From assembly GCA_963819655.1 (NCBI GenBank), contig CAWFXA010000003.1:352001-416000 (forward strand): DNA of 64,000 nucleotides, given 5' to 3'. The stretch's first letter is position 1. Each line of letters starts with the position of its first letter. Both the position numbers and the translations under genes were made by a program. Under the pieces are notes generated by a model. The model worked only from the letters and a program-made list of their open reading frames with translations, had not been told where the DNA came from and did no database searches. The DNA is from an uncultured Chloroflexia bacterium. GTDB lineage: Bacteria > Chloroflexota > Limnocylindria > Limnocylindrales > CSP1-4. Positions 50,264-60,654 of the stretch are shown in pieces.

Positions 50264-51121
50264 TCAGCTCAGCTGGACCGCGATCGGGAAGGTCGCACGG
50301 TAGGCGTCGCCGTCCTGGGTCACCGCCAGGAGCGTCGCGCCGCCGCTCTGGTTGAAGATCTGGTCTGACGCGTTCGGCTGGTCCTGCGGCCCCTTCTGCG
50401 CATAGACGCCGGTCGCGTACACGTCGCGGCTCAGGTCATCGTCGAAGAACAGCTGCGACGTGAACTCGAAGCCGGCTTCGGCCTCCGGATCCGTGCGGAT
50501 CTTGAAGTGGATGTGGACGGCGCGGCCCTGATACCAGCCGGGATAGATGGTCGTGAATGACGCCCGCCCGGTGGCATCGGTGCGCTGGAAGCCGCGCAGG
50601 AAGTTGCCCGTGTTCCCGCTCACGCCCGAATAGTCGCCCAGCGCGTCGCAATGCCACACATCGACGACGACGCCTTCCAGCGGCACGCACGCGGAGCCGT
50701 TCGCCTGCGACACGATCCAGTCGAGGGTCAGCGTCGCCCCCGCGGAAACGGCGTTGTCCGCGGTGTTCACGCGGATATCGGATCGATCGAGATTCACATC
50801 GAGGTAATACGGACCCTCGGTCAGCTCGGGCGCGACCACGCAGGCTGGCAGGGCTGTCGCGATAGCCGCTGACGCGCTGGCCGACGCCTCCGCGCTCGCA
50901 GCGGCGGTGGCTGCGGCGGATGGTGCCGCCGACGCCTCCGCCGAGGCGGACGAGGATGCCGATCCGCCCGGCACGCACGCTGCGAGGAATGTCGCGGCGC
51001 CACCCGCGCCGATGAGCGCGAGGACCTCGCGCCGGGAGAGGATCCGACCGATCAGTCGGTCATCGTCGTCGAGATCGTCGAGCGACGGCGGCGAGGTCGG
51101 CGAGGGCGCTGGAGAGGTCAT
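50264..51121 (-). CDS. Intradiol ring-cleavage dioxygenase-like Tat lipoprotein
   Basis: SRREVL + FLAAC, TEGPYY, DVWHCDA.G.YS, LRG.Q.TD, TIYPGWY.GRAVHIH, TSQLFF. Confidence 0.88.
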   Translation of the reverse strand: MTSPAPSPTSPPSLDDLDDDDRLIGRILSRREVLALIGAGGAATFLAACVPGGSASSSASAEASAAPSAAATAAASAEASASASAAIATALPACVVAPELTEGPYYLDVNLDRSDIRVNTADNAVSAGATLTLDWIVSQANGSACVPLEGVVVDVWHCDALGDYSGVSGNTGNFLRGFQRTDATGRASFTTIYPGWYQGRAVHIHFKIRTDPEAEAGFEFTSQLFFDDDLSRDVYATGVYAQKGPQDQPNASDQIFNQSGGATLLAVTQDGDAYRATFPIAVQLS

Positions 51122-51209
51122 GAGGGAGGCTCCGAGCGGGTCGATCAGGTCGATAAGGCTCGGCGCCGGACGTGAGAGCCGTCTGAGACCGCGCTGAGGT
51201 GCGACCCGG

Positions 51210-51386
51210 TCAGTGCGTCGGTTGCGCCTCCGCCTCGGCCTCCTCGACCAGGTCGAATTCCGTCCACGCGCACGACGGGCAGGTCCACTTCTCGAAAGCG
51301 CCTTTGTCCGCGGCCTCGGTGGCCGACGACCATGACTCGCGGCTGTCGATGCTGCCGCATTTCTCGCATTTCCTGACGAAGGCCAT
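51210..51386 (-). CDS. 58-aa CPxC zinc-finger micro-protein
   Basis: GAGGAG SD; MAFVRKCEKCG...WTCPSCAWTEFDLVEE. Confidence 0.75.
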   Translation of the reverse strand: MAFVRKCEKCGSIDSRESWSSATEAADKGAFEKWTCPSCAWTEFDLVEEAEAEAQPTH

Positions 51387-51524
51387 CGGTTCTCCTCGTC
51401 TTCGCTCGTTCCAACGCCCATCACCGTGGGCCGACGGCGGGCACGACCGCATCACGTCCCCTGCGTGGCGACTTGCGGTCCCATTGCATAGCCGCGCCGC
51501 GTCGGTTCGGTACCATTGCGGCCG

Positions 51525-54290
51525 ATGTCGACCCCACCCGTCACCCCGGATCCCCGGATCGTGTCGCGGCCTGCGTCGGAGCTCCGTCAGCGCTTCATCG
51601 AGTTCTTCGCCGAGCGCGGCCATATGGTCGTCCCGAGCGCGAGCCTCGTGCCGGCCGGCGACCAGACGCTGCTGTTCACGAACAGTGGGATGGTCCAGTT
51701 CAAGGATGTCCTGACCGGCGCCGAGACGCGCAGCTACGCGCGCGCCGTCGACTACCAGCGCTGCCTGCGCGTCGCCGGCAAGCACAACGACTTCGAGGAG
51801 GTCGGGCGCACGCCACGCCACCACACCCTCTTCGAGATGCTCGGCAACTGGAGCTTCGGCGACTATTTCAAACGCGATGCCATCCATTACGCGTGGGACT
51901 TCCTGACGCGCGATCTGGGGCTGCCGGGCGAGCTGCTCGCCGCCACCACGTACACCACCGACGACCTCGCCCACGAGATCTGGCGCGACGAGATCGGGCT
52001 GCCGCCGGAGCGCCTGGTCCGCTGGGGCGACTTCCCCAACGGCGATGAGAAGAACTGGTGGCGGATGGCCGACATCGGGCCGTGCGGGCCGTGCAGCGAG
52101 ATCCATTTCGATCGCGGGTCGCACCTGAGCGAGGGTCCCGAGTGCATCCCGGACCACAGCGAGACGTGTCCTCGCTGGCTCGAGATCTGGAACCTCGTGT
52201 TCATGGAGTTCGAGCTCCATCCCGACCGCTCGCTGACCCCGCTGCCGGCGCCCGGCGTCGATACCGGGATGGGCCTCGAGCGCCTCGCCAGCGTCGTCCA
52301 GCAGGTGCCCACCAACTACGACACCGACCTGTTCACGCCGATCCACGCACGGATGCGCGAGCTGCTCGGGCACGATCCCGACGCGTTCGAGCAGGAGCGC
52401 TTCAGCTACCAGGTCATCGCCGATCATTCACGCGCCGTCACGTTCCTCATCGGTGACGACGTCCTTCCCAGCAATGAGGGGAGGGGCTACGTCCTGCGAC
52501 GGATCCTGCGGCGCGCCGTCCGCCACGGCCGTCTGCTGGGGCGGCGTGAGCCGTTCATGGCCGCCACGGCCGAGGTGGTCATCGACGTCATGGCCGACGC
52601 GTACCCCCACCTCGTCGAGAAGCGGGACGTGATCCTCGCCACGATCGCGCGCGAGGAGGCGCAGTTCGCGCGCACGCTCGATGCCGGGACGGCTCAGCTC
52701 GAGGAGGCGCTCGATGCCCTGTCAAGGGCTGAGCGCGTCATCGGCCGGGGACCCGAGGACCTGCCTGCGGACGCCCCGCGACTCCCCGGCGACGTCGCCT
52801 TCCGGCTGCACGACACGTACGGCTTCCCGGTCGACCTGACCGCGGAACTCGCGGCCGAATACGGGGTGGCCATCGATCGCGAGGGCTTCGACGCCGCGCT
52901 CGCCGAGCAGCGCGAGCGCAGTCGATCGGGCAAGAAGGCCGAGCTCGCCAAGCACGCCGAGTCGACGTCGCTGTACAGCGCCATCCAGGCGCGCAGCGGC
53001 GACACCGAGTTCCTGGGCTACGAGACGACGACCGCCGAGGGCCGCGTCGTCGCGATCGTCCGCGACGGGATGGAGTACGACGAGCTGACCGGTCTCGGTG
53101 AAGCCGAGGTCGGGCTCGACCGGACGCCGTTCTATGCCGAGGGCGGCGGACAGGTCGGCGATCAGGGAGTGCTGCGCGAGCCCGGCGGCGGAAGCCCGCT
53201 GTTCACGGTCGAGGACACCCAGCGTCCGGTCGGTGGCTTGATCGTCCACCGTGGCACGCTCCGGGGTCGGCTCAACGTGGGCGCGACCGTCGAAGCCGTC
53301 GTCGACGCATCGCGGCGCGCCGACACGATGCGCAACCACACGGGGACGCATCTCCTGCATCGGGCGCTCCGCAACGTGGTGGGCAACCGGGCGCGTCAGG
53401 CCGGCTCGCTCGTGCACCCCGACTACTTGCGCTTCGACTACCCGTTCGACCGGGCGCTCACCGATGACGAGAAGCGGGCGATCGAGGACGAGGTCCGCGC
53501 GGTCATCCGCGACGATCGCCCTGTGACGGTCCAGTTCATGCCGATGGCCGAGGCCATCGAGCAGGGTGCGGACGCGTTCTTCGACGAGAAGTATGGCGAG
53601 ACCGTGCGCACGGTCCGCGTCCAGGACTACAGCTTCGAGCTGTGCGGTGGGACACACTGCCGGGCCACTGGCCAGATCGGCGGATTCGTGATCACCGGCG
53701 AGCGGAGCATCGGGTCCGGCCAGCGGCGGATCGAGGCCGTCACGGGCGCCGGTGCGGACAGGCTCATCCGCGAGAGTCTGGAGACGCTCGATCGGCTTGC
53801 CGACACGGTCGGGGTGCCATCCCTGGACCGGCTCGAAGACCGCGTGACCGCATTGCAGGAGGAGCTGCGCGAGGCGCGTCGTCGCCTGCGGGCCGGCGCG
53901 GGCAGCTCGGTCCCCAAGCCGGCCGAATTGGCCGCCCGAGCCGAGGAGGTCGCGCCCGGTGTTCGGCTGGTCGCTGCGACGGTGCCTTACGAGTCGATGG
54001 ATGCGCTCAAGGCCGCCTCAAAAGAGGTGCGGGCCGTCCTCGGGAATGGCGTCATCGCGATGTTCCTCGATGCCGAGGCGCCGGGGGTATGGGTGACGGT
54101 GTCTGACGACCTGGTCGGCCGCGGGTTGTCGGCGGGTGACCTCGTCAAGGTCGCGGCGGGGCCGATCGGGGCCAAGGGCGGCGGCCGGCCGCAGATGGCC
54201 CAGGGCATGGGCACGCGACGCGAAGGACTGTCGGAGGCAGAGGCCGCGCTCCGCAGCTCGATCGCCGAGCGGCTCGGCGCGGGGGGCTGA
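51525..54290 (+). CDS. alaS: Alanine--tRNA ligase
   Basis: LLFTNSGM, FEMLGNWSFGDYFK, GPCGPCSE, DTGMGLER, editing HTGTH...CGGTH, GGGRP. Confidence 0.98.
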   Translation: MSTPPVTPDPRIVSRPASELRQRFIEFFAERGHMVVPSASLVPAGDQTLLFTNSGMVQFKDVLTGAETRSYARAVDYQRCLRVAGKHNDFEEVGRTPRHHTLFEMLGNWSFGDYFKRDAIHYAWDFLTRDLGLPGELLAATTYTTDDLAHEIWRDEIGLPPERLVRWGDFPNGDEKNWWRMADIGPCGPCSEIHFDRGSHLSEGPECIPDHSETCPRWLEIWNLVFMEFELHPDRSLTPLPAPGVDTGMGLERLASVVQQVPTNYDTDLFTPIHARMRELLGHDPDAFEQERFSYQVIADHSRAVTFLIGDDVLPSNEGRGYVLRRILRRAVRHGRLLGRREPFMAATAEVVIDVMADAYPHLVEKRDVILATIAREEAQFARTLDAGTAQLEEALDALSRAERVIGRGPEDLPADAPRLPGDVAFRLHDTYGFPVDLTAELAAEYGVAIDREGFDAALAEQRERSRSGKKAELAKHAESTSLYSAIQARSGDTEFLGYETTTAEGRVVAIVRDGMEYDELTGLGEAEVGLDRTPFYAEGGGQVGDQGVLREPGGGSPLFTVEDTQRPVGGLIVHRGTLRGRLNVGATVEAVVDASRRADTMRNHTGTHLLHRALRNVVGNRARQAGSLVHPDYLRFDYPFDRALTDDEKRAIEDEVRAVIRDDRPVTVQFMPMAEAIEQGADAFFDEKYGETVRTVRVQDYSFELCGGTHCRATGQIGGFVITGERSIGSGQRRIEAVTGAGADRLIRESLETLDRLADTVGVPSLDRLEDRVTALQEELREARRRLRAGAGSSVPKPAELAARAEEVAPGVRLVAATVPYESMDALKAASKEVRAVLGNGVIAMFLDAEAPGVWVTVSDDLVGRGLSAGDLVKVAAGPIGAKGGGRPQMAQGMGTRREGLSEAEAALRSSIAERLGAGG

Positions 54291-55552
54291 TGGCGTTCTG
54301 GCGCCGCATCTGGCAGCGCGATGGCGCCGACAGTCTCGCGGCGTGCACAGCACTCGACGTCGGGACGGAGTTCGCCAAGGCGCTCGTGTTCGAGATCGAC
54401 GATGAGGGGCTGGGCACTGTGCGCGGGGTGGGCAGGAAACGGCAGGGCCTATCGCACATGCAGTCGGGGACCGTCGCGGACATCGCGGCGGTCGTCGATA
54501 ACTGCGCCGTCGCGCTCCAGGAGGCCGAGGAGATGGCCGGCTTCCGGCCGAGCCAGGTCGTGATCGGCATCGCCGGAGAGCTCGTCAAGGGGTTCACGAC
54601 GACCCACAGCCAGGAACGCAGGAAGCCCGACCAGCCGATCTCCGAGGCGGAGCTCCAGAAGCTCATCGACGGCGTCCAGCGCGAGGCGCTGGGCGAGGCG
54701 GAGCGGGCGATCACCTGGGAGACAGGTCTGCCCCACGTCGACGTGCGGCTCGTCCACGCCGCGGTGACCGGCGCCTCGATCGACGGCTACGCCCTCACGA
54801 ACCCGGTCGGCTTCCAGGGTCGTCACGTCAAGATCGGGATCTTCAACGCCTTTGCGCCGCTCGTTCACCTCGGGGCGTTGCAGAGCGTCGCGTCGCAGCT
54901 CGACCTCGAGCTGCTCGAGATCGTCGCCGAGCCCTATGCCGTGGCCCGCGTCCTCGGCACGGAGCAGATCCGCCAGTCCGGGGCGCTATTCGTCGATGTC
55001 GGCGGCGGCACGACGGACGTCGCGCTCGTTCGCCAGGGCGGGATCGAGGGCACGCGCATGTTCGCGCTCGGCGGTCGGGCCTTCACGAAGTCGCTGGCCG
55101 ACCGGCTCGACCTACCGTTCCCACGAGCCGAGTCGCTCAAAGTCGACTATGCGCGCGGCATCCCGATCGAGCGCCGGGAGGACATCGCGAACATCATCGG
55201 CGAGGATGTCAGGGTGTGGGCCGCCGGTGTCGAGCTCGTGATGGAGGAATTGTCGGGTGGTGACCTGCTGCCCGGCCGGATCTACCTGTGCGGCGGCGGG
55301 TCCCGCCTGCCGGAGATCCGCGAGGCCCTGGCGGCCGAGACATTCTGGAAGCGCATGCCGTTCGCACGGCCGCCCGAGGTGGCCGTCCTGTCTCCCGACC
55401 AGATCGACACGGTCGTCGATGCGACCGACCTGCTCGTCGACCAGCAGGACGTGACGCCGCTAGGGCTGGCGTACCAGGCGATCGAGCTCCAGACCACGGC
55501 AGATCCACTCGAGGTCGCGCTCCGACGGGTGTTGCGCGCGATGAAGGTCTGA
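54290..55552 (+). CDS. FtsA-like actin-fold ATPase (orphan paralog)
   Basis: ALDVGT, M.SG.V.DI, AEPYA, DVGGGTTD, GGRAFT, AE.LK, LCGGGS.LP; no ftsZ nearby. Confidence 0.88.
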   Translation: MAFWRRIWQRDGADSLAACTALDVGTEFAKALVFEIDDEGLGTVRGVGRKRQGLSHMQSGTVADIAAVVDNCAVALQEAEEMAGFRPSQVVIGIAGELVKGFTTTHSQERRKPDQPISEAELQKLIDGVQREALGEAERAITWETGLPHVDVRLVHAAVTGASIDGYALTNPVGFQGRHVKIGIFNAFAPLVHLGALQSVASQLDLELLEIVAEPYAVARVLGTEQIRQSGALFVDVGGGTTDVALVRQGGIEGTRMFALGGRAFTKSLADRLDLPFPRAESLKVDYARGIPIERREDIANIIGEDVRVWAAGVELVMEELSGGDLLPGRIYLCGGGSRLPEIREALAAETFWKRMPFARPPEVAVLSPDQIDTVVDATDLLVDQQDVTPLGLAYQAIELQTTADPLEVALRRVLRAMKV

Positions 55553-55555
55553 CCC

Positions 55556-56320
55556 ATGGAGGTCCGCATCCTCTACCTCGACATCGACGACGAGATCACG
55601 ACGGCGGCTGCGCGCGTCCGCGGCGCCGAGGGCACCCGGATCTCGATCGTTCTGCCCAACGGATCGCGGTTGGCGACCTCGCGGATCAATTTCCGGCTCC
55701 TGGCACGCGACGCGACGCTCAACAGCAAGCAGCTCTCGATCATCTCCGGCGATGCCGCCACGCGGGCATTGGCCGCATCCGCCGGGTTGCCGATCTTCGC
55801 GTCGGTCGCTGAATACGAGTCGGCACTCGAGGCCGAGCGTGGCGCCAAGGGTGCGGGCTCGACCGAGCCCGCGGTGAGCGCCGAGTCCGGAGACACCGCC
55901 GGCGCCGTCGGTGCGGCCGCCGCCGCAGGAGCGGCCGCCGCAGGAGCGGCCGCCGTGGAGGGTGCTGCCGGCGTGACCGGCGCGTCCGAGCCCGAGAGGG
56001 CGCCCTCCGTCCGGTCGGCCCGGTCGAGGCGCAAGCCGCGAGCGCCGATCGAGACCGGCGACGAGACGATGGGTCTGTTCCCGCCACCCGTGCAGGCTGG
56101 AGACGTGACCACAGGTACGGCGGCCGCCGGTACGGCCGCGGCAGTGGCGGCCGCGCCGGTGCCCCCGGACCGTGGCAGAGGGCTGAGGTCGCCCCGCCGC
56201 CCTTCGTGGCCGCGACACGCAGCCAGGTCGGCGTCCCGCGTGGCCCCGCAGCCATTCCCGCGGCCCGGGTCATGGCCGACACGCCCCCCGATGTCGTGCC
56301 CGCGGCGCCGTCCCGCGTGA
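55556..56320 (+). CDS. N-terminal part of a frameshift-split membrane protein (small alpha/beta cytoplasmic domain + Ala-rich linker)
   Basis: ILYLDIDDEITT...LVLP-like...NFRLLAR...D...RALA..AG; translation turns Arg/Pro/Ser-biased after about 56165. Confidence 0.7.
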   Translation: MEVRILYLDIDDEITTAAARVRGAEGTRISIVLPNGSRLATSRINFRLLARDATLNSKQLSIISGDAATRALAASAGLPIFASVAEYESALEAERGAKGAGSTEPAVSAESGDTAGAVGAAAAAGAAAAGAAAVEGAAGVTGASEPERAPSVRSARSRRKPRAPIETGDETMGLFPPPVQAGDVTTGTAAAGTAAAVAAAPVPPDRGRGLRSPRRPSWPRHAARSASRVAPQPFPRPGSWPTRPPMSCPRRRPA

Positions 56321-57525
56321 CTGGTTCGCGCGTCCTGCCCGCACCGATGGGGCGGCAACTCCTGCCGGCCACGCTGCGCACGCCACTGGTCATCGGGCTG
56401 GCCGTCCTCGCGCTCGCTCTCGTCGTCGGCGGCGTGGGCGCCTACGTGTTCCTGCCGACAGCCACCGCGGTCATCACGCCCCGTGAGGCGGCGATCGGAC
56501 CGCTTCCACTGCGGATCGTCGCTAGCCCATCCGCCACCGAGCCCGATCCGGTCGCCAGGACGGTTCCGGCCCAGACCAAGACGTTCGACGTCGAGACGAG
56601 CCAGACCTTCACCGTCACGGGCAAGCGAGTCGAAGAGACCGAAGCCAAGGGCACTGTCCGGTTCCGCAACAAGGACTTCACGTCCACGAACACGATCCCG
56701 CGCGGCAGCATCGTGAGCACCCAGTCGGGCGTCCGCTTCCGGACCGATCGCGCGGTGACGGTGGCACGCGCCGAGCTCGTCGGGCTCCAGGTCTTCCCCG
56801 CGTCCGCGACGGTCAAGGTGACGGCCGTGAAGGCCGGCACCGCCGGGAACGTCGAACCGAACACGATCCTGGTGATCCCGCGCGGCGAGGACCCACTGAC
56901 GCTCGACGTCACGAACCCGGACCAGACCAGCGGCGGCAAGCGGGACGAGTTCCCACAGGTCAAGCAGGCCGACATCGATGCCGCGACCAAGGCGCTCGGA
57001 GAGGGACTCGCGACCGCCTTCCAGGAGAAGCTCGCCGACCCGGCGCTCGTCGCCGATGGGTCGACCGTCTTCGGCGAGACCGCGTCCCTCGGCACGCCGA
57101 CGTACACGGTCGACCCGGCGACACTGCTCGGCGACGAGATCGAGACGTTCGATCTGGGCGCCTCGGCCAGCGGCACCGTCCTGACGGTCGACGAGGCCTC
57201 GGTGCAGGTCGTCGCGGAGGCGAACATCGCAAGCCAGGTCCAGTCGGGCTACGCCCTGGTCGATGGCTCCAGCACCATCGACGCGTCGCGCGGCGAGGTC
57301 CAGGACGGCGTCATCTCGTTCCCGGCGATCATCACCGCCCGCCAGGTCCTGTTGCTCGACCCGACGGCGATCGAGGCCGAGATCCGCGGCAAGTCGTTGG
57401 CCGACGCAAAGTCGATCCTCGACGGATACGGCCGCGCCGAGCTCGCGGTCTGGCCGGACTGGGTGGCCACGGTCCCGACGCTCGATGCTCGCGTCGATGT
57501 CCGCACGACCGAGGCAACGCCATGA
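56206..57525 (+). CDS. C-terminal part: TM + baseplate J/gp47-like extracytoplasmic domain
   Basis: TM ending LP.ATAVITP; AKGTVRFRN, IPRGSIV, G.RFRT, V.A...G.AGNV, VTN....SGG.DE motifs typical of baseplate J. Confidence 0.8.
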   Translation: MAATRSQVGVPRGPAAIPAARVMADTPPDVVPAAPSRVTGSRVLPAPMGRQLLPATLRTPLVIGLAVLALALVVGGVGAYVFLPTATAVITPREAAIGPLPLRIVASPSATEPDPVARTVPAQTKTFDVETSQTFTVTGKRVEETEAKGTVRFRNKDFTSTNTIPRGSIVSTQSGVRFRTDRAVTVARAELVGLQVFPASATVKVTAVKAGTAGNVEPNTILVIPRGEDPLTLDVTNPDQTSGGKRDEFPQVKQADIDAATKALGEGLATAFQEKLADPALVADGSTVFGETASLGTPTYTVDPATLLGDEIETFDLGASASGTVLTVDEASVQVVAEANIASQVQSGYALVDGSSTIDASRGEVQDGVISFPAIITARQVLLLDPTAIEAEIRGKSLADAKSILDGYGRAELAVWPDWVATVPTLDARVDVRTTEATP

Positions 57526-58019
57526 CGGGATTCCTCGGCATCGACCTCGGGGAGCGGCGGATCGGCATCGCCATCTCCGACGGCCCGGACGTGGGCGCGC
57601 GCCCGCTCGCGACGATGCCCCGTGGACGCTCGATCGACGCGGACGCGTCGGCGCTCGGATCCCTGATCGACACGCACGCGATCGACGAGCTCGTCGTCGG
57701 ACTGCCGCTCGACGCGGCCGGGCACGAGGGCTCGCAGGCGGCCGCGACCCGCGCCTGGGTCGACGCGCTCAGGACAGTTCTCGGAGAACGGGTCAGAATC
57801 GGGTTTCGAGACGAGCGCCTGACCAGCCACGTCGCGGAGACGCGGCTCGGTCCGATGCCGCGCGGCCGCTCGGGCGGACCGCCGTCGCGCCAGCAGCGCG
57901 ACGCGTACCGGGCCCGGGTCGACCGTGAGGCCGCGTCGATCATCCTGCAAGATGAGCTGGACAGCCGCCGGGCGACCGGGTCCGCTCCGACCCGACCGAC
58001 GATGGAGAGCCGACCATGA
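57522..58019 (+). CDS. ruvX: YqgF/RuvX RNase H-fold nuclease
   Basis: LGIDLGERRIGIA.SD, VVGLP, DERLTS, VD..AA.IILQ. Confidence 0.93.
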   Translation: MTGFLGIDLGERRIGIAISDGPDVGARPLATMPRGRSIDADASALGSLIDTHAIDELVVGLPLDAAGHEGSQAAATRAWVDALRTVLGERVRIGFRDERLTSHVAETRLGPMPRGRSGGPPSRQQRDAYRARVDREAASIILQDELDSRRATGSAPTRPTMESRP

Positions 58020-59407
58020 CGATCCGCTCCGGCGGACGCCCGCGCGACCAACGACCCCCGCACGCCCGCCGCTACGAGGCCGATGCCTATGCGACGGACT
58101 ACGTGCCCGAGGACTTCGAGCCGTCGCGCCGGTACGGCCCCGGTGGCGGCAACGGGCGGCGGCGGGGTGGCGGTGGCAGCGGCCTCGGCGGGGTGGTCAA
58201 GTTCCTGCTGTTCGCGCTGCTGCTGGGCGGGCTCGTCCTCATCGTGGCGCTCACGGCACTCCGGCCGGTCGTCAACAACGCGATCCTGTCGTGGGCCGAG
58301 GACAGCCCGGCCGCCCTGAGCCTGCCCTTCGTCGCCGATATCGTCCGCGAGGACATCGGCACGTCGCTGACGCAGCCCGTCTCGAGCGACCCGGAACAGG
58401 TCGAGTTCGTCATCGCGGAGGGGGATACTGCGTCGTCGATCGCGGCGCGACTCGAGGTCGAGGGGCTGATCCGTGATCGCCGGGCGTTCATCTTCATCGC
58501 GAGCGAGCGTGCGCTGACCGGGTCGCTTCAGCACGGGACCTTCGTGCTGCGCAAGAACATGACACCCGATCAGGTCGTCACTGCGCTGCTCGCTCCGCCG
58601 GAGGACCCCTACGTCGAAGTCGACCTACGAACGGGACTCCGCCTCGAGCAGATCACGGCCAAGCTGCAGACCCTTCCACTCGAGATGGATGTCCGTGCGT
58701 TCTACGAGCTGGCCAAGGAGCCGCCGGCGACGCTCCTCGCGGATTACCCGTGGCTCCGCCGCGCCCTGGCCGACGCGCCCGAGGGCGCGTCACTGGAAGG
58801 CTTCCTGTGGGCCGGCAATTACCGGGTGCTGCCCGATACGACGCCCGAGGAGCTGCTTCGCAAGATGCTCGACGCGTTCCACGAAGCGATCGGCGACGAC
58901 AAGATGAAGGTCCCGGCCGAGCGCGGGATGTCGTTCTACCAGGTGCTGAGCCTGGCATCGATCGTCGAACGCGAGGCCGCGCTCGACGAGGAGCGGCCGC
59001 TGATCGCTGGCGTGTACCAGAACCGACTGAACGGGATACCTGGCATCAAGAACAAGATCCTCAATGCCGACCCGACGGTCATCTACGCCAACGACACGGT
59101 CCAGCTGGCCGCGCTCGACTTCGAAAAGTGGCAGGACTACCGCTTCTGGACTGTGCCCGAAGGCGTCGCTCTCCGGGACGTCCCGCTGCCCGAGGAGTTG
59201 ATGGGCTACCAGACGTACACCCAGCCGGGTCTCATCCCGGGACCGATCGTTACCCCGACGGTCGCCTCGATCGACGGGGCGCTGCACCCCGACACGGCCG
59301 ATAAGTACATCTACTTCCTGGCCATCCCCGACACCAAGCAGCATGCGTTCGCCAAGACCGCCAAGGAACACGAGGCAAACCGGAAGAAGTACGGCTACAT
59401 CCAGTGA
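58016..59407 (+). CDS. mltG: Endolytic transglycosylase MltG
   Basis: TM, LEGFL, LASIVERE, IAGVY.NRL, ADPT, GL.PGPI, YIYF. Confidence 0.92.
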   Translation: MTIRSGGRPRDQRPPHARRYEADAYATDYVPEDFEPSRRYGPGGGNGRRRGGGGSGLGGVVKFLLFALLLGGLVLIVALTALRPVVNNAILSWAEDSPAALSLPFVADIVREDIGTSLTQPVSSDPEQVEFVIAEGDTASSIAARLEVEGLIRDRRAFIFIASERALTGSLQHGTFVLRKNMTPDQVVTALLAPPEDPYVEVDLRTGLRLEQITAKLQTLPLEMDVRAFYELAKEPPATLLADYPWLRRALADAPEGASLEGFLWAGNYRVLPDTTPEELLRKMLDAFHEAIGDDKMKVPAERGMSFYQVLSLASIVEREAALDEERPLIAGVYQNRLNGIPGIKNKILNADPTVIYANDTVQLAALDFEKWQDYRFWTVPEGVALRDVPLPEELMGYQTYTQPGLIPGPIVTPTVASIDGALHPDTADKYIYFLAIPDTKQHAFAKTAKEHEANRKKYGYIQ

Positions 59408-60654
59408 CGGTGGCCCGCGCCGGCTGGCCGTCGCCGGCCGATTTCGGGGTCGCGCCCAGCGCCGCCGACATCACTCGTTGGGAGGACGCCGACCGCTCAG
59501 CCAGGCCGGCCAGGCTCGCCCGTCTGCGCGCCCGATTCGCGGATGCGGGCATCGACGCCTACTACGGCGTCCGCCGCGAGCACATGCGTTATCTCACCGG
59601 TTTCACGCTCGCGGAGGGCGAGGAGAGGATGGCCGGAAACTCGGGCCAGTTCCTCGTCGGGGGCGACGACGTCGTGGTCTTCGCCGATTCGCGGTACGCG
59701 ATCCAGGCCCGACGCGAGGCGCCGGAGGCCCGCCTCGAGGCCGTCTACGGCGACCTGCCGTCGCGCTGGCGGGACCTCGTCGGCTCGATCGGGGCGCGGC
59801 GGGTCGGGGTCGAGGCCGGGTTCGTCCCGCACGCCGTGTGGGCCCGGCTCGCGGCCGCGGCTCCGGACGTCGACCTCGTCCCGATCGAGGGTTGGATCGA
59901 AGGCGACCGGGCGACGAAGGAGCCGTCCGAGATCGAGCGCATCGCGGCCGCCTGTGCGGTCGCCGACCGTGCCCTGGCGACGCTGCTCCCTGACATCGTG
60001 CCGGGCGCGACCGAGGCCGCTCTCGCACTTCGCCTGGAGTGGCTGATCCGCACCGGCGGAGCCGAGGCGCTGGCCTTCGACGTGGCCTGTCTGTCCGGTC
60101 CGGAAGCGGCGCTGCCGCACGGCGCCCCGGGCGATCGACCCGTGCGCGACGGCGCGGTCCTGCTGTTCGACTTCGGGGCGCAGGTCGCCGGTTACCGGAG
60201 CGACATGACGCGAACGCTGTTCGTCGGTGAGCCCCTCGCGCGCGATCTCGACGTGTACGAGCTCGTCGCACGGGCACAGGCAGAGGCGATCGGGGCGCTC
60301 CAGGAGGCGGTCGAGCGGGTCGGGGCCGGGGTAGGGGAATTACCCTCCGGTCGGGCTGTGGACGGGGTGGCCCGAGACGTCATCGCCGCCGGCGGACACT
60401 TCGACCACTTCGGCCACGGTCTGGGCCACGGCATCGGGCTCGCGACGCACGAAGCTCCCTCGCTGAGCGTGCGAGCGCCCGAGACGCCGCTCCCGAGCCC
60501 GACCGTGTTCTCGATAGAGCCGGGCGTCTATCTCGACGGCGAGACCGGCGTCCGGATCGAGGATCTGGTCACCATCGACACGGGCGCCGGGCGCCTCGAG
60601 CGCCTCACCCGTTTCCCCCGCGAGGTCGTGGTGGTGGGCGGGGACGTCCGCTAG
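59404..60654 (+). CDS. Xaa-Pro aminopeptidase (M24 family)
   Basis: YLTGF, DSRY, ALPHG, DFGA...GYRSDMTRT, HGLGHGIG...HE, EPGVY, GVRIED. Confidence 0.93.
   Translation: MTVARAGWPSPADFGVAPSAADITRWEDADRSARPARLARLRARFADAGIDAYYGVRREHMRYLTGFTLAEGEERMAGNSGQFLVGGDDVVVFADSRYAIQARREAPEARLEAVYGDLPSRWRDLVGSIGARRVGVEAGFVPHAVWARLAAAAPDVDLVPIEGWIEGDRATKEPSEIERIAAACAVADRALATLLPDIVPGATEAALALRLEWLIRTGGAEALAFDVACLSGPEAALPHGAPGDRPVRDGAVLLFDFGAQVAGYRSDMTRTLFVGEPLARDLDVYELVARAQAEAIGALQEAVERVGAGVGELPSGRAVDGVARDVIAAGGHFDHFGHGLGHGIGLATHEAPSLSVRAPETPLPSPTVFSIEPGVYLDGETGVRIEDLVTIDTGAGRLERLTRFPREVVVVGGDVR

Follow-up and report, generated by a model that had tools for sequence, protein, structure and literature searches.

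Genes and features of the locus

The operon described here lies in a 64,000-nucleotide stretch of an uncultured Chloroflexia bacterium of the order Limnocylindrales (GenBank assembly GCA_963819655.1, contig CAWFXA010000003.1, positions 352,001 to 416,000; the whole stretch is called the window below), in which two genes, one for an actin-fold ATPase and one for a single-pass membrane protein that we call the partner, stand between alaS and ruvX–mltG. The ATPase appears from sequence and fold to be a paralogue of FtsA that is likely independent of FtsZ, and the partner is the core member of the pair. The features are:

51516..54290, + strand: alaS, alanine-tRNA ligase, context gene (Pfam PF01411, PF07973, PF02272)
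54290..55552, + strand: FtsA-family actin-fold ATPase paralogue, 420 aa (Pfam/NCBIfam, structure comparison)
55556..55840, + strand: partner, STAS-like alpha/beta domain on the cytoplasmic side (residues 1-95), with the likely ATPase dock Y7, T15, S42, N45, K58
55841..56380, + strand: partner, disordered Ala/Pro-rich linker, with a +2 nt frameshift near 56177-56183
56381..56455, + strand: partner, single transmembrane helix, predicted N-in (model helix 291-313; K/R bias)
56456..57525, + strand: partner, outer domain, a nested, beta-rich stalk that bears a removable beta-barrel of ~100 aa (about 56630-56940)
57522..58019, + strand: ruvX/yqgF, context gene (PF03652, TIGR00250)
58016..59407, + strand: mltG, endolytic transglycosylase, possible functional partner (PF02618, TIGR00247; synteny)
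59404..60654, + strand: Xaa-Pro peptidase M24, context gene, found 3' of mltG in Limnocylindria-like loci

The operon is real: the genes overlap or abut as originally predicted, at TGATG (alaS/ATPase), TGA-CCC-ATG (ATPase/partner), ATGA, ATGA, and GTGA, and Pfam and NCBIfam matches confirmed the identities of alaS, RuvX, MltG, and the M24 peptidase. Unlike in the original description, the partner gene is not one open reading frame in the window; two surplus bases near 56177-56183 split it into two frames, 55556-56320 and 56206-57525. The closest relatives, L008 and L009, which also differ in the ATPase–partner gap (2 nt instead of 3 nt), do not have these bases, nor do independent short-read contigs (1,600 bases in run X1, 200 bases in run X11). 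Among 80 related loci, six stop before the second half of the gene, and of the 74 that hold both halves, 66 have the partner in a single frame and eight have it broken at varied positions. As the gene is intact in 66 of 74 relatives, and the two short-read contigs agree with them, the frameshift in the window is likely an assembly error. Upstream of alaS and divergent from it, an exported-protein gene (50264-51424, - strand), which we take to be dioxygenase-like, breaks the mnmA–alaS run.

Relationship of the ATPase to FtsA

FtsA is the best match of the ATPase in fold and in sequence, with about 21-25% identity, and it is also the best family match, with a score below the family threshold (TIGR01174, 106 bits vs. 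a cut-off of 175.85); the PilM cut-offs were likewise missed (PF11104, 20.3 vs. 27 bits; TIGR01175, 29.5 vs. 133 bits). Subdomain 1C is present in the actin fold and carries a 14-aa insert, and subdomain 2B is shortened, as a hairpin of about 20 aa is missing. The original prediction that the actin-family nucleotide motifs are kept holds throughout the family: all 90 members have D23, G25, K284, and G335, 89 have D236, and 88 have E281. At the position of the FtsZ-binding arginine in 2B, all 16 FtsAs compared have arginine and none of the 90 members of the ATPase family does; aspartate is often found there, and the window's ATPase has D306. In E. coli, R300 has this role at the FtsZ-tail site. 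Amphipathic helices had been proposed for both ends of the protein. For the C-terminal one (residues 406-418) we found some support, with a moment of 0.79, a family median of 0.60, and values of at least 0.6 in 48 of 90 members, to be read against internal windows that reach 0.76; the N-terminal one was not supported (predicted local distance difference test scores of 53-73, family median moment 0.45). The ATPase is predicted to bind ATP and the membrane, and likely not FtsZ.

The absence of adjoining ftsZ and ftsQ genes, already noted for the window, was borne out, and in none of the loci listed does the ATPase gene adjoin ftsZ. A canonical ftsA–ftsZ pair is present elsewhere in the genome, with a different gene occupying the place beside ftsZ in the dcw cluster of cell-division and wall genes, and in a quick, unfinished tree search the ATPase family formed a separate clade on its own side of the tree relative to FtsA. 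Judged on sequence and gene context, the ATPase is a second FtsA-family protein encoded outside the divisome operon. It is 98-99% identical in named relatives labelled Candidatus Limnocylindrales or 'uncultured Chloroflexia'.

The genome of the window has two mreB genes of its own and three tubulin/FtsZ genes, each of which keeps the conserved C-terminal peptide. Two of the latter are extra stand-alone FtsZ paralogues (G000:C3:251870-253123, - strand, and G000:C2:984434-985729, + strand), of which one adjoins clpX; both have a hydrophobic N-terminal segment that may be a membrane anchor. Two single sequences of the ATPase, P0024 and P0035, are extended at length at the N-terminus, and judged by eye these extensions appear caspase-like and TIR-like.

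The membrane partner and its outer domain

In 105 of 112 members of the partner family, lysine and arginine are richer before than after the transmembrane helix. The N-domain is classed as SpoIIAA-like by Wang et al. The outer domain has a length of about 355-360 residues, and the claim that it carries baseplate J/gp47 motifs stands for about 100-130 residues and fails for the remainder: the match covers positions 17-109 of the 255-position baseplate profile, and a true baseplate J covers 2-253. A barrel of ~100 residues, together with the following helix, superposes with the barrel of baseplate J and of Streptomyces GlxA at an rmsd of about 2 A, and GlxA ties with baseplate J as the best barrel match. 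Superposition over the whole domain fails (long alignments, rmsd 30-46 A); the last subdomain may match on its own. Some partner paralogues have the barrel deleted. As stated earlier, the operon contains no phage tail genes; in the genome of the window (91% complete), we found no sheath match and no second baseplate-J match, the partner being the only one. According to PMC8892547, GlxA, the non-phage relative of the barrel, acts in wall-glycan deposition.

The outer domain is also used in other proteins. In two genomes of family f23, five of eight paralogues scanned join it through a transmembrane helix to Ser/Thr kinase domains, and an Atlas cluster of 52 kinases carries it as well. The inner module attached to it is thus exchangeable, being STAS-like, a dead actin domain, or a kinase, and the kinase fusions mark the outer domain as an autonomous extracytoplasmic module. 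The kinases with this domain form an expanded set (L252:1452-17305, L254, L255, and L256, genomes G162 and G188), with four outer-domain genes inside 17 kb in G162 and two barrel-less paralogues in the set. The STAS-like domain also occurs as a stand-alone 103-aa copy (L230:5683-5991), and f23 genomes often hold two to three copies of it.

Evidence for docking of the ATPase on the partner

A physical link between the two proteins across the membrane, as originally predicted, is likely in view of natural fusions and of surface residues that are lost together with the ATPase. In 37 fusion proteins, an actin domain that lacks 1C and the nucleotide motifs is joined to the same transmembrane helix and outer domain, and this actin domain derives from the ATPase family described here (HH 98.3%, E 1.7e-14; canonical FtsA 2.4%). 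None of the 37 fusions has retained the STAS-like domain; covalent attachment of the ATPase makes this inner domain dispensable, as would be expected of a dock. Furthermore, the polar or aromatic residues Y7, T15, S42, N45, and K58 of the inner domain are conserved in 43-98% of the 84 partners accompanied by an ATPase, against 0-24% of the 17 that lack one, whereas core positions of the domain are unchanged between the two groups, a contrast that was drawn, uncorrected for phylogeny, from related, non-independent lineages with a profile made from ATPase-bearing partners. From these comparisons, it is likely that the ATPase docks on the STAS-like domain.

Distribution and synteny

One sample of 301 Chloroflexota genomes was surveyed, with a threshold of E <= 1e-45 for the ATPase profile; the ATPase was found in 94, the partner N-domain in 209, and mltG in 265 genomes, in lists that were matched by eye, include non-independent kin, and contain weak partner matches taken unchecked. 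All 94 ATPase-bearing genomes have the partner, 206 of the 209 partner-bearing genomes have mltG, and the partner is present in three of the 36 genomes without mltG. In the family of the window's genome, the ATPase is found in 57 of 60 genomes. Another 20 N-domain loci were retrieved, of which 19 come from genomes below the ATPase threshold; 17 of the 20 have a full partner before mltG and no ATPase, the partner often lying directly 3' of alaS; the others comprise a degenerate ATPase, a barrel-less paralogue, and a stand-alone N-domain from a genome with the pair elsewhere. The degenerate ATPase (L220:5353-6651), which lies between alaS and the partner gene, scores 155 bits to the family and has no Pfam match, is likely an intermediate in gene loss. 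Because these 17 loci have the partner without the ATPase, and the reverse was never seen in the 94 genomes, the membrane partner is core and the ATPase is optional. The idea of the pair as a unit must therefore be modified: both Chloroflexota and Patescibacteria have conserved the pairing, but it is not obligate, as more than half of the partner-bearing Chloroflexota genomes have no ATPase.

In 80 metagenome loci, many of which we assign to Patescibacteria from their low GC content and grouping with a Peregrinibacteria protein, the partner follows directly 3' of the ATPase in 58, and 17 are too short to tell; the remaining five are discussed below. One metagenome clade (L148, L150, L151, L157) has the ATPase and partner inverted or separated. 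Partner and mltG stay in synteny even where the ATPase, alaS or, in one case, ruvX has been lost. Small-genome relatives from the same order or class have neither gene of the pair (family f2, 0 of 3; genus g53, 0 of 2) and keep mltG. In two loci from one family (L098:5044-5277 and L100:4843-5079), a small gene for 78-79 aa lies between ruvX and mltG, the place that DUF1292/YrzB holds in Firmicutes.

The pair in Southlakia epibionticum

In the supplementary tables of PMC10633639, S. epibionticum ML1 has the gene order mnmA-alaS-'pilM'(K03590)-'baseplate J'-ruvX-mltG, the two central genes appearing as table rows: SEML1_0656 (427 aa, 'PilM') and SEML1_0655 (556 aa, 'baseplate J/gp47 family protein'). 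Their sizes and domain calls match those of the window's pair, and judged on order and annotation rather than on sequence comparison, they are almost surely the same pair. The tables further list ftsA, ftsZ, and pilM as separate genes, and none of the rows is named MreB; there is one annotated ftsZ, and the canonical ftsA is essential despite the paralogue. The pair is given there as core and enriched in Patescibacteria, and in the main text, as far as it was covered by term searches, FtsA, baseplate, PilM, and MltG are not mentioned. In the transposon sequencing data of these tables, the partner has 373, 34, and 24 reads at the three time points (non-essential, essential, essential; NE/ES/ES) and is scored as essential, as is ruvX just 3' of it (112, 0.75, and 0.9 reads).

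Proposed role of the pair and alternative explanations

We propose, at roughly even chances, that the pair is a wall-linked membrane rod whose position is set from within the cell by a paralogue of FtsA that is independent of FtsZ and docks on the STAS-like domain. The single-pass partner would extend with its rod-like outer domain into the peptidoglycan layer. The ATPase would bind the STAS-like domain; in its ATP-bound state, it would lie on the membrane via its C-terminal helix and assemble into short oligomers of the FtsA type, by which the partner would be clustered and positioned; and the outer rod would touch cell-wall glycan or a wall enzyme, with MltG as the best candidate. Like PilM with PilN, the ATPase would thereby serve to organise a wall-linked core protein but be optional, and lineages could dispense with it by deletion or swap it for a fused, ATP-blind copy. 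Among the parts of this proposal, a role of the pair at the wall is probable in view of the lasting synteny with mltG and of the part that GlxA plays in wall-glycan deposition, we lean slightly towards the positioning of the partner by membrane-lying ATPase oligomers, and MltG as the specific wall partner is a tentative suggestion. Rather doubtful is a more far-reaching version, an ancient and so far overlooked link between cytoskeleton and wall in the Chloroflexota–Patescibacteria group, apart from divisome and elongasome: here, an FtsZ-independent FtsA-type filament would steer a rod that positions MltG-type glycan processing, and kinases would have reused the outer domain as a wall-binding module of a new kind. 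Such a system might act, for instance, where Saccharibacteria, for which no MreB is annotated, bud at their poles.

Several observations weigh against the proposed rod. The partial loss of 2B may alter filament contacts of the ATPase, and as the fused copies have neither 1C nor the ATP motifs, neither ATP nor an FtsA-type polymer is needed there; the kinship behind the conservation contrast weakens the docking evidence. Among the metagenome loci, three have the pair on opposite strands, inverted nearby, and two have another gene after the ATPase. In S. epibionticum, the ATPase gene is scored with a late growth defect only (2427, 660, and 221 reads; NE/NE/GD, GD denoting growth defect), a pattern shared by mnmA, and since the transposon cassette has a terminator and the essential ruvX overlaps the end of the partner gene, polarity on ruvX could explain the calls for both partner and ATPase. 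Cooperation with MltG, part of the original prediction, is possible and rests on synteny, but in the same dataset, in which the partner scores essential, mltG is called non-essential throughout the three time points. Moreover, alaS–ruvX–mltG is a widespread cluster in any case, 59 of 265 mltG-bearing genomes have no partner, mltG is missing in the 4 kb 3' of the L103 partner, and eight of 38 metagenome loci have no mltG within 1.5 kb.

The pair could instead relay signals across the membrane, with the outer domain sensing the wall or a surface ligand like the PASTA domains of StkP/PknB, the STAS-like domain as output, and the ATPase as a nucleotide switch or an adaptor instead of a polymer. 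The kinases that carry the outer domain, both in the f23 paralogues and in the Atlas cluster, support such sensing, and so do the exchangeable inner module, the functioning of the partner without the ATPase in many lineages, and the SpoIIAA-like assignment by Wang et al.; overall, we consider a signal relay unlikely. It is quite improbable that the pair serves as an alignment subcomplex in a secretion machine or surface appendage, like PilM–PilN or GspL: no pilus or secretion cluster was recognised beside the pair in the loci listed, where annotation covered few query genes, the ATPase family is nearer to FtsA in sequence and fold, the PilM matches in the window's genome are two FtsA-family genes only, and the tables of PMC10633639 place a separate, essential pilM of S. 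epibionticum (SEML1_0104) within a pilus locus.

The idea of a domesticated baseplate that forms rings, here a baseplate-J wedge of the envelope for which an actin-like polymer would be the template, had to be given up as a leading explanation and is now very improbable, since the match is confined to the barrel and the next helix, GlxA matches equally well, the whole-domain fit fails, and some paralogues have no barrel. It is hardly credible, finally, that the ATPase serves the divisome as another FtsA and tethers FtsZ, possibly the genome's two extra paralogues. The closeness to FtsA, the putative C-terminal amphipathic helix, and the three FtsZ genes with their C-terminal peptides would fit such a function, but the FtsZ-binding arginine is absent throughout the family, the gene adjoins ftsZ in none of the loci listed, the extra FtsZs have hydrophobic N-termini of their own, and the tabulated S. 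epibionticum genes include a single ftsZ and an essential canonical ftsA.

Significance and comparison with known systems

No description of the pair was found in the portion of the literature searched, which included term searches of three relevant papers. The two genes define an actin-family clade and a membrane protein family not previously studied, in a conserved gene order that Chloroflexota and Patescibacteria share; both groups are huge, and their envelope biology is poorly known. The database labels 'PilM' and 'baseplate J' are misleading for these chromosomal genes of a housekeeping cluster. As S. epibionticum is transformable, the question is directly testable, and nature offers ready controls: the ATPase lost, degenerate, or fused, the barrel lost, a kinase fused, and the named docking residues.

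Compared with FtsA–FtsN (PDB 7q6f, 7q6i; TIGR01174, PF14450), the ATPase differs in being encoded outside dcw, in the loss of the arginine and of the 2B hairpin, and in the 14-aa insert in 1C; the partner would dock by a folded domain, whereas FtsN does so by a short peptide. The pair resembles PilM–PilN and GspL/EpsL (PDB 2ych, 5eou) in that an FtsA-fold cytoplasmic protein is encoded just 5' of a bitopic partner. The partner domains, however, bear no relation to PilN, lineages can lose the ATPase, and no pilus cluster was recognised in the loci listed; PilM genes precede pilN–pilO in a pilus locus, whereas the ATPase gene precedes the partner gene, ruvX, and mltG. GspL is itself such a natural fusion, its actin domain being stripped and ATP-blind, which is a further likeness to the fused copies. 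Unlike MreB, which works with RodZ/MreC, the ATPase has subdomain 1C and a different partner, and the genome keeps its own two mreB genes. With baseplate J/gp47 (PF04865, phrog_6) and GlxA (PF21110), the partner shares the ~100-residue barrel and the next helix, and it differs from baseplate J in its membrane anchor, in the rest of the domain, which does not superpose, in the removable barrel, and in the lack of tail genes in the operon. By analogy, the pair may work like PilM–PilN or FtsA–FtsN, yet it falls outside the family definitions of FtsA, PilM, and baseplate J.

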